From a virus: a DNA stretch of 64,000 nt. Positions 18,761 through 58,839 of this stretch are shown here, piece by piece (position 1 is the first letter of the stretch; each line of letters opens with the position of its first letter). Location of the stretch: IMG/VR virus record IMGVR_UViG_3300017971_000277, positions 1 through 64,000 of that record; one strand, 5' to 3'. The notes under the pieces were generated by a model. That model made no database searches. It saw nothing but the letters and a program-made list of their open reading frames with translations, and was not told the DNA's origin. A program made the position numbers and the translations under genes.

Positions 18761-18948
18761 TCGACCTCCTCGACGTTGAGTTCGTGAATCTCTGCGTCCT
18801 CTGCCTCACTCGAGCACTGGTGGCAGAGGAAGCAGCCGATCTCAAGCTCATCGAAAGCCTTCTGCTCGGCCTCCTCGGCGTTCGCAGCTTCGACCTCTCC
18901 GAGATACTTCGACCCCGTCACCACTCCGTAGACGCGATACTTCTTCAT
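18757..18948 (-). CDS. small hypothetical protein (MKKYRVYG...EVEAANAEEA)
   Basis: ATGA overlap with the primase stop; AGGAGG SD. Confidence 0.7.
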   Translation of the reverse strand: MKKYRVYGVVTGSKYLGEVEAANAEEAEQKAFDELEIGCFLCHQCSSEAEDAEIHELNVEEVE

Positions 18949-19931
18949 GCCATCCTCCTGATCTCCATCTCGGTCAGATCCCACTCCGTTTTGATTTGCA
19001 CGAGAGAGGATCGGAGAGCCGAACTGCACCATGCCGTTCCAAGGCTGTTTGGATCTTCCCGGTCGGGAATGGGTAGAACGAAGTTGCGGAACAACCCAAA
19101 GGTCTTGCGGATCGCTTTCTTCGTGCTTTCCCATGCGTCTCCATCCCACGCCCATATCAAGTCGGAAACGCCAAGCTCAAAGAGCGCAAGCACCTGACCG
19201 TCGTGCAGGTTTGAGCCGTAGGTTCCTACTGCGTTCTCGACACCAAAGAACGTCTCCGCGTCGAACACGCTTTCGGTGACGACGACTCTCGAGCTAGTCG
19301 GATCCCAACGCTTGCTGGTGTAGACCGTCTGCTCCGTTGGCATCCACGCTGGATAGAGCGTCTTCGGGCTCTGGCTTGGGGTCGTCGCCTTCGCCTCGAA
19401 TCCGTGGTCCTCGTCCAGAAACGAGCAAGGGATGATGACCCGTTCGAAGTAGTCGCTGTTTGCGTCGAGGCAGAGACTCGCAGACTGGATTAGGTGCGCT
19501 ACGCCTCGCGTCTCGAGCAGTTTGACCGACCGCTCTTCGGGTCCAAGATCCAGCAGTCTGAAGAGATCGTTTGGCAGTCGTGGTGCGACCTTCTCCTTGG
19601 GCTGCCACGCAGGCTCGGGGACTCCGGCCAACTCGTAGACCATGCGGAAAGCGTCGCGCCACTCGCATTGCTCCACGATTTTGATGAAGCGAAGAAGGTT
19701 GGCTCCCCCACTCCAGATGTCTCCACCATGACCACCCTCTCTGCACTTGAAGCAGTGGAATAGACCTCGACCGCGATCGATGCTCAACTTCTTCTTGGCC
19801 CGACACATCGGGCAGTCCGCGTAGATCTGCTGCCCGCCACGGTCGTAGACCGTGACGTGCCTACTCAGCCACCCCACCACCGGGAACTGGTCGATGGCGA
19901 GGTTTAGGGATTCACGAGATTCACGCATCAT
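18945..19931 (-). CDS. DnaG-type DNA primase
   Basis: CPMC...FHCFKC zinc finger; RVIIP, VVTESVFDA and WDGD TOPRIM motifs. Confidence 0.9.
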   Translation of the reverse strand: MMRESRESLNLAIDQFPVVGWLSRHVTVYDRGGQQIYADCPMCRAKKKLSIDRGRGLFHCFKCREGGHGGDIWSGGANLLRFIKIVEQCEWRDAFRMVYELAGVPEPAWQPKEKVAPRLPNDLFRLLDLGPEERSVKLLETRGVAHLIQSASLCLDANSDYFERVIIPCSFLDEDHGFEAKATTPSQSPKTLYPAWMPTEQTVYTSKRWDPTSSRVVVTESVFDAETFFGVENAVGTYGSNLHDGQVLALFELGVSDLIWAWDGDAWESTKKAIRKTFGLFRNFVLPIPDREDPNSLGTAWCSSALRSSLVQIKTEWDLTEMEIRRMA

Positions 19932-20643
19932 TATTACTCTGTCCCAAGGAGGTAGGCGAGTGCCCTTGCAGCCACGACCGGAACGACTCCATTTCCACAG
20001 AGCCGACGCCGATAGCTGTCCAGCCCTGGGGAATAGCCATCATCCACTCGCACCACGCTGCCGGGAGGTTCGTCACGCCAGGGAACAAATCCTGAAGGAG
20101 CGCATAGGCGGGCCACTTCCGCATACTTGGAGCGAGCGCATTCGCCTTGGCCGTAGGAGTAGGCAAGAAGCCACCTTCTGTTCCGCTCATGCGGCGCACC
20201 CAGCGCGGCGGCGGAAGCTTCGAGAATTGGGGTCGAGAGGTATCCTTCACGCCGCAGTTCTTCACGAAGCTGTTCCAACCGATCCCGGCTTCCTCCGACG
20301 TTTTCGATGAAAACGAGTGGGGATAGGCACTCGGCTGCGACCCGCACAACGTGAGGAAGGAGGTCTTCTGCGACCTTTCGGCCTCGAGAGGCTGTTGAGA
20401 AAGGCTGGCACGGCGCTCCCGCTGTCGTAATATCCACGACTCCAGCCCACTCCTTACCGTCGAAGGTTCTGAGGTCAGAGTGGATCGGAGCGGAGTCAAG
20501 AAAACCTTCGCCCATACGCGAGGCCAAGACCGCTGCCGCAGTAATTTCCCGTTCCACGTAGCAGACGGCATGGGAGGAAGATCCAAAGAGGAGTTTGAGC
20601 CCAAGCTCGATTCCTCCATACCCGGCACAAAGAGCCAAGACAT
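19921..20643 (-). CDS. C5-MTase beta chain (motif IX) encoded in an overlapping frame
   Basis: LPTPTA and NLPAAWCEWMMAIPQGWT (motif IX variant). ATG lies 4 nt after the alpha GTG. Confidence 0.8.
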   Translation of the reverse strand: MSWLFVPGMEESSLGSNSSLDLPPMPSATWNGKLLRQRSWPRVWAKVFLTPLRSTLTSEPSTVRSGLESWILRQRERRASLSQQPLEAERSQKTSFLTLCGSQPSAYPHSFSSKTSEEAGIGWNSFVKNCGVKDTSRPQFSKLPPPRWVRRMSGTEGGFLPTPTAKANALAPSMRKWPAYALLQDLFPGVTNLPAAWCEWMMAIPQGWTAIGVGSVEMESFRSWLQGHSPTSLGQSNNDA

Positions 20644-20647
20644 TCAC
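19934..20647 (-). CDS. C5-cytosine DNA methyltransferase, catalytic (alpha) chain lacking motif IX
   Basis: LCAGYGG (I), GAPCQPFS (IV), ENV (VI), HERNRRW (VIII), LCGNGV (X). GTG 20647 after AAGGAG. Confidence 0.88.
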   Translation of the reverse strand: MNVLALCAGYGGIELGLKLLFGSSSHAVCYVEREITAAAVLASRMGEGFLDSAPIHSDLRTFDGKEWAGVVDITTAGAPCQPFSTASRGRKVAEDLLPHVVRVAAECLSPLVFIENVGGSRDRLEQLREELRREGYLSTPILEASAAALGAPHERNRRWLLAYSYGQGECARSKYAEVARLCAPSGFVPWRDEPPGSVVRVDDGYSPGLDSYRRRLCGNGVVPVVAARALAYLLGTE

Positions 20648-20657
20648 GGTGCTCCTT

Positions 20658-22979
20658 TCAGGAGACTGCATGTTTGTAGAACGCTTGCCGCGCAAGATCG
20701 GACTTGATGGTGATGGTGCGTCGTGCGTTGGGGCGATTTCTTGCCTTGCTGATGAACAAGGTCGTCAGCCCTTCCGCGTGCTCCTTCTTGGTCCGGTTGA
20801 GAGAGATGATGATGTCGGCGATCTGGACCTTCGCGATCGAGCCGCCGATGTGCTCTTGGTCCGCTACTGTCGCCTCAGAGCCGCCGCGGTTTGCGTGAGC
20901 GCCTGTCCAAATGGACAACTCCTCCTCGACTGCCCATCCACGAACGTTGGTGTAGATCTCCTTGCCAGCCGCGTAAAGCTGATCGCCGCGAAACTGACCC
21001 TCTGGGGCTAACTCCTCAGCCTGGTCCAAGATGATGAGGTGGGGGTAGAAGTTCTCGGTGTTGCGGACGATCTCGAGGTGTCGCTTCAGGTCGCTGAGGC
21101 GCGTTGATCCACCAGGGAATTGCTTGATCCGCACGTCTCCACCGAAGCGGAACCAAGTCCGCATCGCCCTCGAGATCTCCGCCTCGTTGCTGAGTTGCTT
21201 CTTCGTCAGGCCAGCTACGCGTTGATCGATGCGGTCTTGGTAGTCTTCTTCGCTCTCCTCGAGCGTGTAGACCATGACCCGCTTTCCCTGCATCACAGCG
21301 GCTACGAGAAGGTGAACCATCGCAGTCGTGTTATGCGTGACGATGTGGTCGTCCGTCACGTATAGCCTGTCTGCTGCGGAGACAGAGATGCACTGCACCT
21401 CCTTCTCACCGACCAACTCAATGGACCTAACGAAGAGCTTCTTCTCCCGCACCTTCTTCAAGCGAACGCGAGAAGCTTTCCGCTCCAGCCAAAACGGGTT
21501 GTCCGTTAGACCAAAGAGGGTAACGCGGTAGGACTTGCGCCCATTTCGCTTCTCCCCGTTGTGTGTATAGGTCGTCGTGCGGCTTGCGATGGAAGCCTGC
21601 ATTCCCAGACCTCGAATCAGGTCTAGAACTTGCTCGGCTAGAACTTCGCTGGTGGTCGTCCATGTAGGAGTTCCTTCTTTCCCACACGTCCCATCCGAGT
21701 CCATGAGTCCACGCAAGAACTCAAGACGCTGCTCACGCGAAGCCACCAGATAGTCGTGTGGTGCGTGTTTCTCCCACGAGCGCTTCCCCGTAAGGCCGAG
21801 TTTGCGCAGTTGTTGCAGAAGCTCATTCGTATGCGGTCCGGAGTTCACGCACTCTGCGTTTGAGATACGCCAGTCCACGCCCTGAACCCATTTGATGCTT
21901 AGACCAACGGACGCGACATTGTCCTGCACCCGGTCAAGAACATCCTGATCCGGGTTTGAGAGTCGGATGCCGTCTTTCGCGATGTGTGCATCTCCGAGAA
22001 GAATACCCAAGAGCCACGGATCGATGGGTAATTCCCTCTCTCGCCCCCACTGACCGGAATGAACCGGGATGGTGATCGGTCGGCTGGACGAACGATCCAA
22101 CTTCTCTCGTATCTCGTCAGTAGAAAGAACCTTCACCTCTGTCCACGACGAGCGCTCAACCTGCCACAAGTGCTCGCCGCAGCACTCCGTGCTTCGACCG
22201 TCCGAAAACAGGACACGGTAGACCGGCTTCTTTCCTTGCGGAAACACTCCAGTTACCGCACTCAATCGACCATCCGTGGAAGCGACGACATCACCGACCT
22301 CGATGTCTCCCATCGTCTTCCATCCGTCGTCCGTAAGGATCTTGCTCGCTAGCGGCTGTGCTTTGCCGATACTCGAACGCTGCGAGAGGAGCACACCTAG
22401 CTCACCCGGCTTGATGCCATCGATCAGGCGATCTAGCTCTGGAATCAGAGTCCAGATCGACTCCTTGTGCTGCTCCTCTCTCCGCTTGATGCGTGCAGCA
22501 ACATCGCGCATCCCCTGTCCGAGAGAAAAGCTCCTCTCCGCCCGATAGACGACAAGCTCGTGAAGGATCTTCTCCGCATTCTCGAACTCACCCTGCTTGA
22601 TGTGCTTCGCGAGACTGGGAAGCCTGCGCTGGAACTTTTGGTTCCGAAAGAAGCGCGCATGGGCACGGAGAAGAAAACTACGGTTCTGAAGCTCAAGCGC
22701 GAAGATCCGATCGAGGTACTCCCGAATCGGACCTAGGTCGATCGTGTTGACCTTCTGGCCTAGACGCTCAAGCTCGGTGTAGATCAACTCCCCGGGAGGA
22801 GAGCCGTGCTCGAGCCCAAACGCCTGAGCGACACGAACGACTCTCTGCGCGTTGTCCGACGTGAAAAGCTCGGGGACAACGTCTTCGCGAACCTCCTGAT
22901 AGAAGGTGTTGTCGCGAAGGAAGTGCGAGACGTAGTGGCGCTGGAAGTGCTCGTCAAAGCCCCAGGTCTGCTGTTCCAT
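20658..22979 (-). CDS. DnaB-like replicative helicase containing an intein
   Basis: GIKPGELGVL..RSSIGK|intein|TTAMVH, YTLE, IILDQ, ADIIISL and KARN motifs. Confidence 0.9.
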   Translation of the reverse strand: MEQQTWGFDEHFQRHYVSHFLRDNTFYQEVREDVVPELFTSDNAQRVVRVAQAFGLEHGSPPGELIYTELERLGQKVNTIDLGPIREYLDRIFALELQNRSFLLRAHARFFRNQKFQRRLPSLAKHIKQGEFENAEKILHELVVYRAERSFSLGQGMRDVAARIKRREEQHKESIWTLIPELDRLIDGIKPGELGVLLSQRSSIGKAQPLASKILTDDGWKTMGDIEVGDVVASTDGRLSAVTGVFPQGKKPVYRVLFSDGRSTECCGEHLWQVERSSWTEVKVLSTDEIREKLDRSSSRPITIPVHSGQWGRERELPIDPWLLGILLGDAHIAKDGIRLSNPDQDVLDRVQDNVASVGLSIKWVQGVDWRISNAECVNSGPHTNELLQQLRKLGLTGKRSWEKHAPHDYLVASREQRLEFLRGLMDSDGTCGKEGTPTWTTTSEVLAEQVLDLIRGLGMQASIASRTTTYTHNGEKRNGRKSYRVTLFGLTDNPFWLERKASRVRLKKVREKKLFVRSIELVGEKEVQCISVSAADRLYVTDDHIVTHNTTAMVHLLVAAVMQGKRVMVYTLEESEEDYQDRIDQRVAGLTKKQLSNEAEISRAMRTWFRFGGDVRIKQFPGGSTRLSDLKRHLEIVRNTENFYPHLIILDQAEELAPEGQFRGDQLYAAGKEIYTNVRGWAVEEELSIWTGAHANRGGSEATVADQEHIGGSIAKVQIADIIISLNRTKKEHAEGLTTLFISKARNRPNARRTITIKSDLARQAFYKHAVS
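21330..22361 (-). mobile_element. 344-aa LAGLIDADG intein (Ala1, class 3-type) in the helicase P-loop
   Basis: AQPL start, HLW (block B), LLGILLGDA and FLRGLMDSDG, VQCISV (block F), VTHN|T end. Confidence 0.92.
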
Positions 22980-56033: not shown

Positions 56034-56248
56034 TTGCCCTCGGCCTTCAGCACCTCAACCGCGTTGTCGTTCGCGATATAGAGCTTGGAGAGCACGGGAG
56101 CCGCAGTCGCGTCGGGCTTGTAGTGGCCGGTCTTGATCTCGAGCTTGAGGAACTTCTCGAAATCCTTCTGCGCCTTCACGTAGCTGGTCTGGAGGTTGGT
56201 GCAACAACCTCCGACCACCATCACCATCAGCAGCAAAGCCTTCTTCAT
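56015..56248 (-). CDS. putative lipoprotein
   Basis: MKKALLLMVMVVGG-C signal peptide II-like N-terminus. Confidence 0.65.
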   Translation of the reverse strand: MKKALLLMVMVVGGCCTNLQTSYVKAQKDFEKFLKLEIKTGHYKPDATAAPVLSKLYIANDNAVEVLKAEGKWTEDQ

Positions 56249-58839
56249 ATCCCCGTCATCTTTCGCACGCGGTAGCGAGGACCACGTCTCGTCTTACTCG
56301 AGTAGAGAGCATAGCGCAAAGCGTCCATGCAGTTGTGGGAGACTACGCCCGACTTCAGCAAAAAGCAATGAAGCTCAGGAACATTCAGGCACCAGACTGG
56401 TGAGCATCCGGCAAATCGGACTTCGCTGACTTCGACCGTCTCGCCCGTAATGCTCTCGCCTTGCACTTCGCAGAGCAGAAGCGGCTCCTGCTTGGGAAGA
56501 AGGTTTCGTAGCTGGTTTCGCAGACTTCGCACGTCTTGGTAGTTGTGGTCCTTCGTTCCCACGTCTCCTTGCCGTGCTGCTTGTGCCACTCCCGGCCCTC
56601 CTCTGAAGCGTGCCACGCGCAAGCCGCAGGTAGTGCTTTGTTCAGCATGTTCTCGCGCAACTGCTTCCGCCTCTGCTCGTTTATGTGCTCGTTTGAGTGC
56701 TGCTTCGGCGACAGCAAGCAGAGGTTGTCCAAGTTGTTGTTTGAAGTGTCCTCGTCTACGTGATGAACATGAAACCCAGGCTTGATCTCCCCGCGGCTCG
56801 CTTCCCACACCGAGCGATGAAGATACTCCCGTCCCCCGCCCTTCTTTGGTCTGCTGAAATACCTTCCGCACTTCCAGTAGGGAACGCCAAGGAATACCTG
56901 CTTCGTCTCGCTTACGACTACTGGATTCAGGTCCATGCCTCACCTTCAAAAGCCGACTACCGGGATGGAGATCGGCTACCGAAGCGTAACGCATAGAGTC
57001 CAGTAGAAACAGGTGGTTTTCAGTCGCGAGGTGTGTTTCACCGTTTGACAGTACCACCTCGTAGACCTCAGCATTCGACTGCGTTTGGCGTGCTCGGTTA
57101 TATGGGCGGAATCCGACCGGGGTAAGGATCTCCCCGTCCTTGCCATCTAGGGTCTGAATCTCGACCCATCCGTGTCCCCGTGTGCAGACCAGCGTATCTG
57201 GTGCAAGGCAGTGATCGTCCACCTTCATCGGCTTCCCGGTGCGATCGACCCTACCATCTGCGTAGGTCGGCCATCGATAGCTTCCGAATTCGCTGAGGAC
57301 GTGCTTGCAGTCTTCCCAGACGTAGAGCATCGGTTCTTCAGCCGGAGGAAAACCGCGAAGAAGGCTAGAGACGTGGTCGATTCCCATCAACACGTCCTTG
57401 TGAGCCTGCTTCGTCGGAACACCGAGAGCCTTAAGCTCGAGCCGGTCCTGTGCGCTCCAGTCAGCGTAGATCGGCTCGGAGCGAGTCCAGAACGGTGAGC
57501 GCTTGACTGCATTGGCGTGGTCACGGATGAGTCGCTGCTCCGCCACGTATTCAAAGAACACGAGCCAAGCACCAGTCGGCATCTGCGTGACCTTCAGATA
57601 GACGAACGGGTGACCAGGGCTAGAGCCGAAGTCCATGCCACCAACTCGAGGCCAAGTGATCTGAGGGTGATGGCAGCGAGTCATCTCGTAGAGCTTCTTG
57701 CGGGTCATAACGTGCCGACCGTTGTCGAACATGCTGTAGACCAGCTTTTCGCGGGACGGACGCTTATTGAGCCACTCGACTTCGAAGCGCTCGCGGTCGA
57801 TCAGACGGACCTTGTCGATGAAGTCCTCGATCGGAAAGAAGCCCGCGGACCCGTGAGCCTTACCCTTGCAGAACGTGTAGACCGGGCAGTCTCCATGCTC
57901 CGGGTCAGCGAAGCAGCGTCGAGTGCAGCGCTCCACCATCTCCCAGACGTTCCACTCGTAGATCTCAATGCCCTTGTTTGAAGCCTCGTCCAGCATTCGC
58001 TGCATGGAGCCGTTCTGAAGCTGTCGCGTCGAGGTGAACACGTTCTGCCCAACGATCCCCTTTGCCTTGCTCGAGTGAGCCATCGAGAGTGCGGTCTGAA
58101 GGATCTCCCACTCGATTAGGTCGATCTCATCGATGCGCGCCTTATGCGGGTGAGGCGAGCGCAGACCCTTTTCCGTGCCGGTGATGATCTCGAGCTTCGA
58201 TCCGTTGGCGTAGCTCGTCTCCTCCTGAATCTCCTTCTTCACGAAGGGTCGTCCAGTCACCTCGGCGAACTTCTCGCAGAACGAGATGAACCAAGGCATC
58301 TGCATGAAGTCTTGCAGGTAACCGTAAGCCTTCTTCGCCTGCGCCTTGACCGCTCCCGCGGACGCGATCTCGCACCCCGACTTAAATAGGAGGTCGAGAT
58401 GGTTGAGGATCGCTACCCCGAACGTCTTCCCGCCGCTTCGATTTGCGAAGGCTAGGGCATTGCGAGTCCGCTCAAAGAACAGGTCCGCGATGAACTCAAA
58501 AGGTGCGCGGTGCCCTGGCTCGATCGCCTTCCGCGGGATGTTTGCGTTGTAAGCGATCTGGATGAACTCGTGGAGTTCGTCATCTGTGGACGGGGGGTTC
58601 TTGAACTTGCCCTTCGCGTCGATCTCGAGGTAGTGCCAGAGGATCTGCCGGTTAATCGCCTCGAGCACACGAGGATCTTCTACCGCGACATCAAGCCCGA
58701 GAACGTGCTCATCGACCGCGACATCAAGCCGGACAACGTCCTCCTCAACGACCGGAAGAGGAGTTGGTTCCCTAGGCGCGGGCGGAGGAGGTAGCTGGTC
58801 GCTATCCGATGGCGGAGGCGGAGGAGGAAGCATCACCAC
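56245..58839 (-). CDS. terL: terminase large subunit with intein
   Basis: ANRSGGKT Walker A, RIDE Walker B, GGMDFG and DDH|intein|CMDALRY nuclease motifs. Confidence 0.92.
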   Translation of the reverse strand: MVMLPPPPPPSDSDQLPPPPAPREPTPLPVVEEDVVRLDVAVDEHVLGLDVAVEDPRVLEAINRQILWHYLEIDAKGKFKNPPSTDDELHEFIQIAYNANIPRKAIEPGHRAPFEFIADLFFERTRNALAFANRSGGKTFGVAILNHLDLLFKSGCEIASAGAVKAQAKKAYGYLQDFMQMPWFISFCEKFAEVTGRPFVKKEIQEETSYANGSKLEIITGTEKGLRSPHPHKARIDEIDLIEWEILQTALSMAHSSKAKGIVGQNVFTSTRQLQNGSMQRMLDEASNKGIEIYEWNVWEMVERCTRRCFADPEHGDCPVYTFCKGKAHGSAGFFPIEDFIDKVRLIDRERFEVEWLNKRPSREKLVYSMFDNGRHVMTRKKLYEMTRCHHPQITWPRVGGMDFGSSPGHPFVYLKVTQMPTGAWLVFFEYVAEQRLIRDHANAVKRSPFWTRSEPIYADWSAQDRLELKALGVPTKQAHKDVLMGIDHVSSLLRGFPPAEEPMLYVWEDCKHVLSEFGSYRWPTYADGRVDRTGKPMKVDDHCLAPDTLVCTRGHGWVEIQTLDGKDGEILTPVGFRPYNRARQTQSNAEVYEVVLSNGETHLATENHLFLLDSMRYASVADLHPGSRLLKVRHGPESSSRKRDEAGIPWRSLLEVRKVFQQTKEGRGTGVSSSLGVGSEPRGDQAWVSCSSRRRGHFKQQLGQPLLAVAEAALKRAHKRAEAEAVAREHAEQSTTCGLRVARFRGGPGVAQAARQGDVGTKDHNYQDVRSLRNQLRNLLPKQEPLLLCEVQGESITGETVEVSEVRFAGCSPVWCLNVPELHCFLLKSGVVSHNCMDALRYALYSSKTRRGPRYRVRKMTGI
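56332..57210 (-). mobile_element. 293-aa intein in the TerL nuclease domain
   Basis: CLAPDTLV (block A), ATENHLF (B), VWCLNV (F), SGVVSHN|C (G). Confidence 0.92.
56385..56936 (-). CDS. HNH homing endonuclease nested in the +1 frame inside the TerL intein
   Basis: YLHRSVWE...HVHHVDEDTSNNNLDNL...H (HNH) and CEVC...RFCSAKC zinc ribbon; own ATG preceded by AAGGTGAGG. Confidence 0.88.
   Translation of the reverse strand: MDLNPVVVSETKQVFLGVPYWKCGRYFSRPKKGGGREYLHRSVWEASRGEIKPGFHVHHVDEDTSNNNLDNLCLLSPKQHSNEHINEQRRKQLRENMLNKALPAACAWHASEEGREWHKQHGKETWERRTTTTKTCEVCETSYETFFPSRSRFCSAKCKARALRARRSKSAKSDLPDAHQSGA

Follow-up and report, generated by a model that had tools for sequence, protein, structure and literature searches.

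How does one stretch of about 0.7 kb, open in two reading frames almost from end to end, encode a DNA methyltransferase, and is the product one chain or two? The question is raised by a locus on the minus strand of a 64,000-nucleotide (nt) stretch of viral DNA, positions 1 to 64,000 of the IMG/VR virus record IMGVR_UViG_3300017971_000277 (hereafter the window). A single AAGGAG precedes a GTG that opens frame A (237 amino acids (aa), here named alpha) and, 4 nt on, an ATG that opens frame B (240 aa, beta), leaving 4 nt (spacer CACC) before the GTG and 8 nt before the ATG. The two open reading frames (ORFs) overlap at 19934-20643, about 710 nt. An earlier sequence-only reading of the window had described a shared Shine-Dalgarno sequence, the string GTG-A-ATG and ORFs of 237 and 240 aa starting 4 nt apart and overlapping for ~710 nt, and our reading of the sequence bears this out in every particular. 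From sequence comparison, structural models and analogy, we consider it probable that the locus encodes a two-chain C5 cytosine methyltransferase of the M.EcoHK31I kind, in which beta would supply the whole small domain that alpha lacks.

Against PF00145, frame A scores 59.5 bits (cut-off 22, E-value (E) 4.8e-16), its residues 2-164 pairing with positions 2-162 of the 324 in the profile. It also matches phrog_363, a 'DNA methyltransferase' family, at residues 2-235 (E 6.5e-35). It contains the sequences LCAGYGG, PCQ, ENV, R-x-R and GNGVVP, which we take to be motifs I, IV, VI, VIII and X of the usual nomenclature. Across 48 aligned homologues, ten residues of the N-terminal part are invariant (G9, G11, P79, C80, Q81, E115, N116, V117, R155, and R157), as is G218 of GNGVVP, with N219 and P223 nearly so. 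The AlphaFold2 (AF2) model of alpha has a mean predicted local distance difference test score (pLDDT) of 80.8 and is confident over residues 1-160 and 221-237; residues 1-165 score 86-97, except for a dip at 81-90, and residues 213-237, the GNGVVP helix, 95/84. The model superposes on M.HhaI with Z 19.1 and a root-mean-square deviation of 3.0 over 188 aligned residues (model 1-237 on chain 12-322), and a Foldseek search with alpha found DNMT2, M.HaeIII and M.HhaI at E about 1e-10 to 1e-9. The PF00145 cut-off, the catalytic and S-adenosylmethionine (AdoMet) motifs and the catalytic-domain fold that mark C5 methyltransferases are all found in this chain.

The chain has no target-recognition region and no motif IX between motifs VIII and X. 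Residues ~161-220, which include a linker of about 48 residues (165-212), have pLDDT 45-69 and are predicted to be disordered. No solved enzyme aligned by sequence to residues 165-212, and the alpha profile, compared with solved enzymes, matches them only from position 2 to about 160 and, weakly, at motif X. Of the 327 residues of M.HhaI, only the 188 are paired with alpha, although the match spans nearly the whole chain. Sequence and model both describe frame A as a catalytic domain of the C5 cytosine methyltransferase type that lacks its middle part.

Frame B carries the sequences FLPTPTAKAN and EWMMAIPQGWT, the second of which we take, in the same nomenclature, to be motif IX. Fourteen columns are invariant among 32 beta sequences (P161, T162, P163, T164, A165, N168, S173, M174, K176, W177, P178, A179, Y180, and P205), and over the codons of this conserved core frame A changes radically. 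Predicted order is complementary as well. The beta core (residues 161-210) is confident, with pLDDT 78-93, where alpha is low (45-69), and beta residues 1-160 score 40-63 where alpha scores 86-97. The DNA that is informative in frame B is the DNA of the alpha linker, and the informative segments follow one another along the gene as A 1-165, B 157-212 and A 213-237. We read the conservation of the N-terminal two-thirds of frame B as largely mirroring the motifs of frame A, and the linker of frame A as largely mirroring frame B. The division of the motifs between two frames that the sequence-only reading had put forward is real and conserved. Besides the motif IX variant that this reading assigned to the second frame, beta also carries a TPT-type segment at the place of a target-recognition region, and so would supply more than motif IX.

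The two products are predicted to bind each other, in a check that the sequence-only reading had proposed and that came out in its favour. Prediction of alpha with beta 140-240 gave interaction prediction scores from aligned errors (ipSAE) of 0.83, 0.83, and 0.89, versus 0.00 for the best of three controls, with a partner pLDDT of at least 76 and a contact agreement of at least 84%. Of solved complexes, 58 of 80 pass the mark used here, as do 2 of 110 mismatched pairs; with our own alignments as input, these counts apply only roughly. The tightest predicted contacts are between alpha 216-224 (GNGVVP) and beta 198-209, and the interface also joins alpha 10-19, 36-49, and 142-155 to beta 198-211. 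Together the two modelled chains resemble one methyltransferase, their binding being itself a prediction.

The second frame is conserved across phages. A tblastn search of phages with the frame-B product found the alternative frame of a homologous gene in nine records, which represent six phages; with 37-44% identity and E from 2e-10 to 8e-6, these matches span residues 135-239 of B. The N-terminal half was aligned in Ralstonia phiRSP alone (two of the nine records), despite the well-conserved frame A there. The other seven records give no +1-frame signal over the conserved N-terminal domain of frame A and thus serve as an internal control. All 11 phage loci that were read have a TPT-type segment and a (W/C)(L/M)MG(F/W/L)(P/D)-type segment in the +1 frame. 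Frame B is open end to end in Pseudomonas PS-1, Ralstonia phiRSP, Gerry, Klebsiella BUCT711 and Pseudomonas Marin, open for 235 codons in Vibrio ZQ26 (46% GC), and open in Burkholderia phi1026b over a span similar to that of frame A, which is annotated there at 433 aa. It is open only from an internal point in Paenibacillus Leyra, Mycobacterium KBG and gene 58 of E. coli phage N15. In Streptomyces Sebastisaurus, the stop of frame A follows motif VIII, and frame B has GNGVVP as well as the IX-like motif. The annotation of Leyra lists both ORFs as methyltransferases, and that of Gerry calls frame B alone, as a hypothetical protein.

A wider comparison comprised 77 rows (76 loci and the window). 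An IX-like motif in the +1 frame and a GN-type motif in frame 0 lie 41-59 nt apart in 46 of the 77 rows, the window row not being counted; the 50 nt between the two motifs in the window fit this pattern. Frame B is open from near the start of A to near its end in about 46 of the 77 rows (window included). Nine rows are cut at the 3' end, and among the 68 complete rows frame A is open through the GN-type motif in about 60. Rows with both frames open include marine contigs of 44-47% GC and 313-463 codons. We compared this openness with a null in which synonymous codons were shuffled within each gene (1000 shuffles per row). Frame B is stop-free over A codons 1-155 in 40 rows, and the null probability of an open frame is at most 0.05 in 28 of these 40. 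For frame A over the part informative in B, 19 of 50 rows had no open frame in any of the 1000 shuffles, where a mean of 5-12 stops was expected.

One ribosome binding site precedes the interleaved start codons of both frames, and in most rows the start of B lies beside that of A. The form GTGAATG is found in the window and two other loci (L007 and L022), ATGAATG in PS-1 and the Vibrio phage, and ATGTGG, in which B starts on the ATG and A on a GTG two bases later, in many marine and soil contigs. By eye, the first residues of B in the longer forms (M-W-[LI]-x-[VI]-P) vary conservatively, and the same bases give radical changes (A, D or V) in frame A, a hint from sequence that the start of B is itself under selection.

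These observations would fit a mechanism in which two same-strand ORFs with near-complete overlap, starts 4 nt apart and one ribosome binding site give the two chains of one C5 methyltransferase. Alpha would be the catalytic large domain, running from the AdoMet-binding and PCQ motifs to motif VIII, then through a poorly ordered linker to the GNGVVP helix. The poorly ordered N-terminal 150-160 residues of beta would mostly be a by-product of alpha coding, and the beta core would occupy, on the DNA, the place between motifs VIII and X that belongs in single-chain enzymes to the small domain (target-recognition region and motif IX). Docked on the motif I, VIII and X surfaces of alpha, this core would complete the enzyme, as beta does in M.EcoHK31I. 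Both frames would be translated, the chains would bind and both would be required for activity. The ratio of initiation at the two start codons might set the subunit ratio; such control of stoichiometry by start-codon choice, also put forward in the sequence-only reading, is purely speculative and at best one variant of the design.

Several points weigh against a two-chain enzyme completed by beta. The openness of the window gene is not significant: frame A is open across the B core in 15% of shuffles and frame B over A codons 1-155 in ~20%, the latter being a rough comparison in which the observed count takes in the TGA before the ATG of B. The case for two coding frames rests on the comparison of the family, and not on the window gene alone, because these window values are only about 0.15 and 0.2. 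The null keeps the codon composition of each gene, which limits it, and the 77 rows include several near-identical ones and were not de-duplicated. Frame A closes soon after motif VIII in 8 of the 68 complete rows, two of which (L019 and L076) have the GN-type motif in frame B. Two related loci at 46% GC (L011 and L050) have a single stop in frame B about 355 nt after its start, with an ATG at +373; frame B is open throughout in their near relatives (L052-L054), and either beta has naturally lost its N-terminal part in the two loci or the stop is a sequencing error. Because frame B is interrupted in these two loci and starts internally in Leyra, KBG and N15, the design can dispense with the N-terminal ~150 residues of beta and so with the shared start. 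The end-to-end dual coding of the sequence-only reading is therefore common without being obligatory.

Beta is also hard to identify. Pfam has no family for the frame-B product, PF00145 was found in none of 32 beta members, and NCBIfam recognised none of the 32; Pfam searches of the frame-B products of three other phages found nothing. The beta profile had no match at E<=1 among the sequences of solved structures. Among fold searches, the best Z of a wide VIA-align search was 3.3, on the low-confidence helix 54-95, and Foldseek against the PDB gave nothing at E<=0.001, failures that do not amount to a new fold. Because beta has no family, sequence or fold match, our tentative reading of EWMM..P.GW as motif IX draws on its position, the motif consensus, phrog_1008 ('DNA methyltransferase', matched in 16 of 32 beta relatives) and a profile match of modest strength (E 1.1e-4, probability 57%) to a Streptomyces-phage protein that has GNGVVP in frame behind the segment, together with the predicted contacts. 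The score of the predicted complex may stem from likeness to solved single-chain enzymes.

The alternative that fares best is a single chain made by two programmed frame changes: A(1-~158), +1, B(~159-212), -1, A(213-237). The three informative segments are indeed collinear with the canonical order of motifs I-VIII, variable region, IX and X, and the Streptomyces-phage relatives would need one +1 change. Such a chain leaves unexplained why A stays open through 100-300 linker codons and B through ~150 upstream codons; both frames are open far oftener than codon shuffles allow, at 44-47% GC too, and B has a start codon of its own beside that of A in most rows. A zero-frame stop soon after the shift and a closed alternative frame upstream, the marks of programmed frameshifting, are lacking in the window and in about 46 of the 77 rows (window included). 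Inspection of the window by eye showed no X_XXY_YYZ heptamer between the IX-like motif and motif X, no family-wide scan for slippery sites having been made, and relatives do not conserve the AGA AGG pair of A157-158. We regard this alternative as quite unlikely. Two polypeptides are the simplest account, and are preferred to a frameshifted chain because both ORFs are open in relatives, including those of low GC, because predicted order is complementary and because the complex scores 0.83 versus 0.00.

It is very unlikely, in our judgement, that frame A alone is expressed as a complete small enzyme, with frame B a conserved-looking shadow, either an ancestral relic or a by-product of the constraint on A. 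phrog_363 treats A 2-235 as one 'DNA methyltransferase' family, many records annotate A only, much of the N-terminal similarity of B mirrors conserved A motifs, and the openness of the frames in the window falls short of significance, all as this account would have it. Within the core, however, it is B that is better conserved, with its 14 invariant columns, and A that varies radically; there A is predicted to be disordered and B ordered, B is stop-free in low-GC relatives, and frame A has nothing at the place of the small domain.

An account in which both proteins are made and beta is no structural part of the enzyme, being a separate DNA-binding or regulatory protein or a dispensable modulator of specificity, draws on the lack of a recognisable family or fold for beta and on the long relatives, where up to seven TPT-type repeats resemble a modular array for binding rather than one fixed domain. 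The predicted interface speaks against it by placing beta 198-211 on the GNGVVP helix and on motifs I and VIII, where single-chain enzymes hold their C-terminal half, as does the core itself, whose place between motifs VIII and X is fixed in 46 of the 77 rows. We give this account, too, only a slender chance. Sequencing error or a pseudogene was rejected, the same two frame changes recurring in 46 of the 77 rows from unrelated sources.

The two-chain design has a close precedent. In M.EcoHK31I, as the available text of PMC2836561 describes it, beta lies wholly in another frame of alpha, which holds motifs I-VIII plus X, along with the target-recognition region, beta holding motif IX; the precedent is as the sequence-only reading stated. 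The likeness is in the two polypeptides, one of which, beta, is encoded by a second frame inside the alpha gene, and in the fit of the window alpha to the side of motifs I-VIII and X. The alpha of M.EcoHK31I keeps its target-recognition region, whereas the window alpha has the low-confidence linker of about 48 residues and the TPT-type segment is in beta. The beta of M.EcoHK31I, which we compared by description and not by sequence, is smaller and internal, whereas the window ORFs are near-coextensive (237/240 aa) behind one shared site. The window-type design is also spread over phages of Proteobacteria, Firmicutes and Actinobacteria and over metagenomes, so that the occurrence of the M.EcoHK31I design in a phage, as the sequence-only reading had it, is supported as a feature of a family that extends well beyond this phage.

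According to the accessible part of PMC3404938, almost every characterised C5 methyltransferase is a monomer, the two-polypeptide exceptions it names being M.AquI and M.EcoHK31I; fragment complementation of C5 methyltransferases is reported there as well. M.AquI is likewise split within the variable region into two polypeptides (PMC3404938, same part). Its beta has motifs IX and X, whereas motif X stays in alpha in the window, and it is closer to the Streptomyces-phage relatives, whose frame A ends after motif VIII and whose frame B has both the IX-like motif and GNGVVP. The monomers M.HhaI and M.HaeIII have the catalytic fold in common with alpha (M.HhaI Z 19.1; PF00145); unlike M.HhaI, alpha lacks a counterpart of the small domain, which would, on our reading, be supplied by beta. 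As in viral overprinting, for example in phiX174 (PMC8227390, in part), two proteins share one DNA and each is disordered where the other is constrained, but the second frame of the window gene appears to encode a domain that the enzyme of the first frame lacks, and not an unrelated de novo protein. Where the accessible part of PMC8227390 touches on methyltransferases or bacteriophages, it deals with a tymovirus replicase domain and phiX174 and with no DNA methyltransferase. Gene tables of Paenibacillus phages list cytosine methyltransferases (PMC6070908, two adjacent; PMC5056774), with no overlap mentioned in the available portions of these papers. Our literature search found the design undescribed in phage methyltransferases, with thin coverage of subscription journals, supplements and REBASE, so that a prior description is possible.

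Frame B has 49 database relatives, and a frame-B profile matched 17,740 representative proteins at E<=1e-3, 6,881 at E<=1e-10 and 423 at E<=1e-30, among 1.84 billion; frame B is often the one picked by gene callers. A search of plasmids with beta gave only two matching records. We looked for the beta core in longer proteins (at least 421 aa) and found none, which is weak evidence. Five beta matches that bear PF00145 were considered as single-chain enzymes and rejected; we read them as chimeras with an A-frame start and a B-frame remainder. With both frames open, any indel or sequencing error gives a long chimeric ORF, and switches of frame part-way (A-frame start, B-frame remainder or more) were seen in three loci (L006, L033, and L035) and five proteins (P0033, P0035, P0037, P0042, and P0050). 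Long forms of the gene (L009/L010, L015/L016/L059, L022, and L007) have 3-7 W-x-T-P-x-A-type repeats in frame B; the repeat DNA gives a low-complexity insert rich in R, G, D and E in frame A, and the number of repeats varies widely. In the phi1026b locus (L022), from about 1190, frame B continues past the end of the methyltransferase gene without a stop and runs for ~500 nt into the frame of the next gene, which is ParB-like.

We advance, with slightly more doubt than belief, a broader proposal. A large class of 'Dcm-like' genes of phages and prophages (thousands of 50%-identity clusters) may be obligately two-chain, with ORFs overlapping end to end over 0.7 to about 1.5 kb, one ribosome binding site and interleaved starts (GTGAATG, ATGAATG, ATGTG), one frame giving the catalytic domain and the other the entire DNA-recognition half; the 1-7 W-x-T-P-x-A modules of beta would be tandem recognition modules that set or multiply specificity. 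If true, few conserved dual-coding arrangements in double-stranded DNA phages would be longer or more widespread, and many 'hypothetical proteins' in databases would be beta subunits. Gene callers keep one frame and drop the other; this phage and Gerry keep B, and most other records keep A. If both chains are made and needed, a common phage gene would have to be read differently, and predictions of methylomes and anti-restriction would be incomplete because of such one-frame annotation. On the same condition, the family would be a rare natural case of overlapping genes whose second frame provides a domain that the enzyme of the first frame lacks, with clear statistical support in low-GC genomes, and a good model for the upkeep of dual coding and its origin from a single-frame ancestor. 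The set of two-chain C5 methyltransferases, represented by the two named in the part of PMC3404938 cited above, would gain a family of thousands. Natural split methyltransferases serve as scaffolds for targeted methylation (PMC2836561, available text), and a large natural repertoire of alpha-beta pairs with a modular beta could, again if both chains are made and needed, help such engineering.

Table 1. Positions, within the window, of the methyltransferase locus, its informative segments and other genes discussed
Feature	Position	Strand	Basis or remark
Upstream helicase stop TGA	20658-20660	minus	AAGGAG directly after
Shared Shine-Dalgarno-like AAGGAG	20652-20657	minus	Read from sequence; putative ribosome binding role
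Frame A GTG start	20645-20647	minus	
Frame B ATG start	20641-20643	minus	
Frame A ORF (alpha, 237 aa, GTG), predicted catalytic large-domain chain	19934-20647	minus	PF00145, phrog_363, AF2 model
Frame B ORF (beta, 240 aa, ATG), +1 frame of A	19921-20643	minus	ORF reading; profile relatives
Frame-A-informative segment, alpha 1-165 (LCAGYGG, PCQ, ENV, R155/R157)	20153-20647	minus	Invariant columns, pLDDT
Frame-B-informative segment, beta 157-212 (FLPTPTAKAN..SMRKWPAY..EWMMAIPQGWT)	20008-20175	minus	Invariant columns, pLDDT, tblastn
Second frame-A-informative segment, alpha 213-237 (GNGVVP helix)	19937-20011	minus	G218 invariant, pLDDT
DnaB-like helicase gene (773 aa)	20658-22979	minus	Upstream of the methyltransferase gene
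Primase-like gene	18945-19931	minus	Downstream of the methyltransferase gene; ATG at 19931
Large terminase ORF (864 aa)	56245-58839	minus	

The source genome is a phage, the window containing genes for a portal protein, large terminase, tape measure protein, DNA polymerase and helicases. The methyltransferase gene is flanked by replication genes on the same strand, with a DnaB-like helicase upstream and a primase-like gene downstream. The end of frame B reaches 11 nt (19921-19931) into the primase-like gene, and the stop of frame A falls 2 nt short of the ATG of that gene. A promoter scan of the locus gave no promoter-like sites, and a terminator scan gave one terminator-like hairpin, inside the gene and at chance level. 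Public gene calls for this phage contain the exact 240-aa frame-B product on five contigs; the frame-A products of 237 aa (GTG) and 253 aa (TTG) are both absent from these calls, so that with only frame B on record the catalytic chain of this phage is unannotated.

Two neighbouring observations concern other genes. The DnaB-like helicase is probably interrupted by an intein, as its residues 416-488 form a LAGLIDADG homing-endonuclease region (PF14528, E 3.5e-11; PF05204). The large terminase ORF is unusually long; its terminase matches are confined to residues 113-545, and a separate match of unknown function covers residues 784-853.

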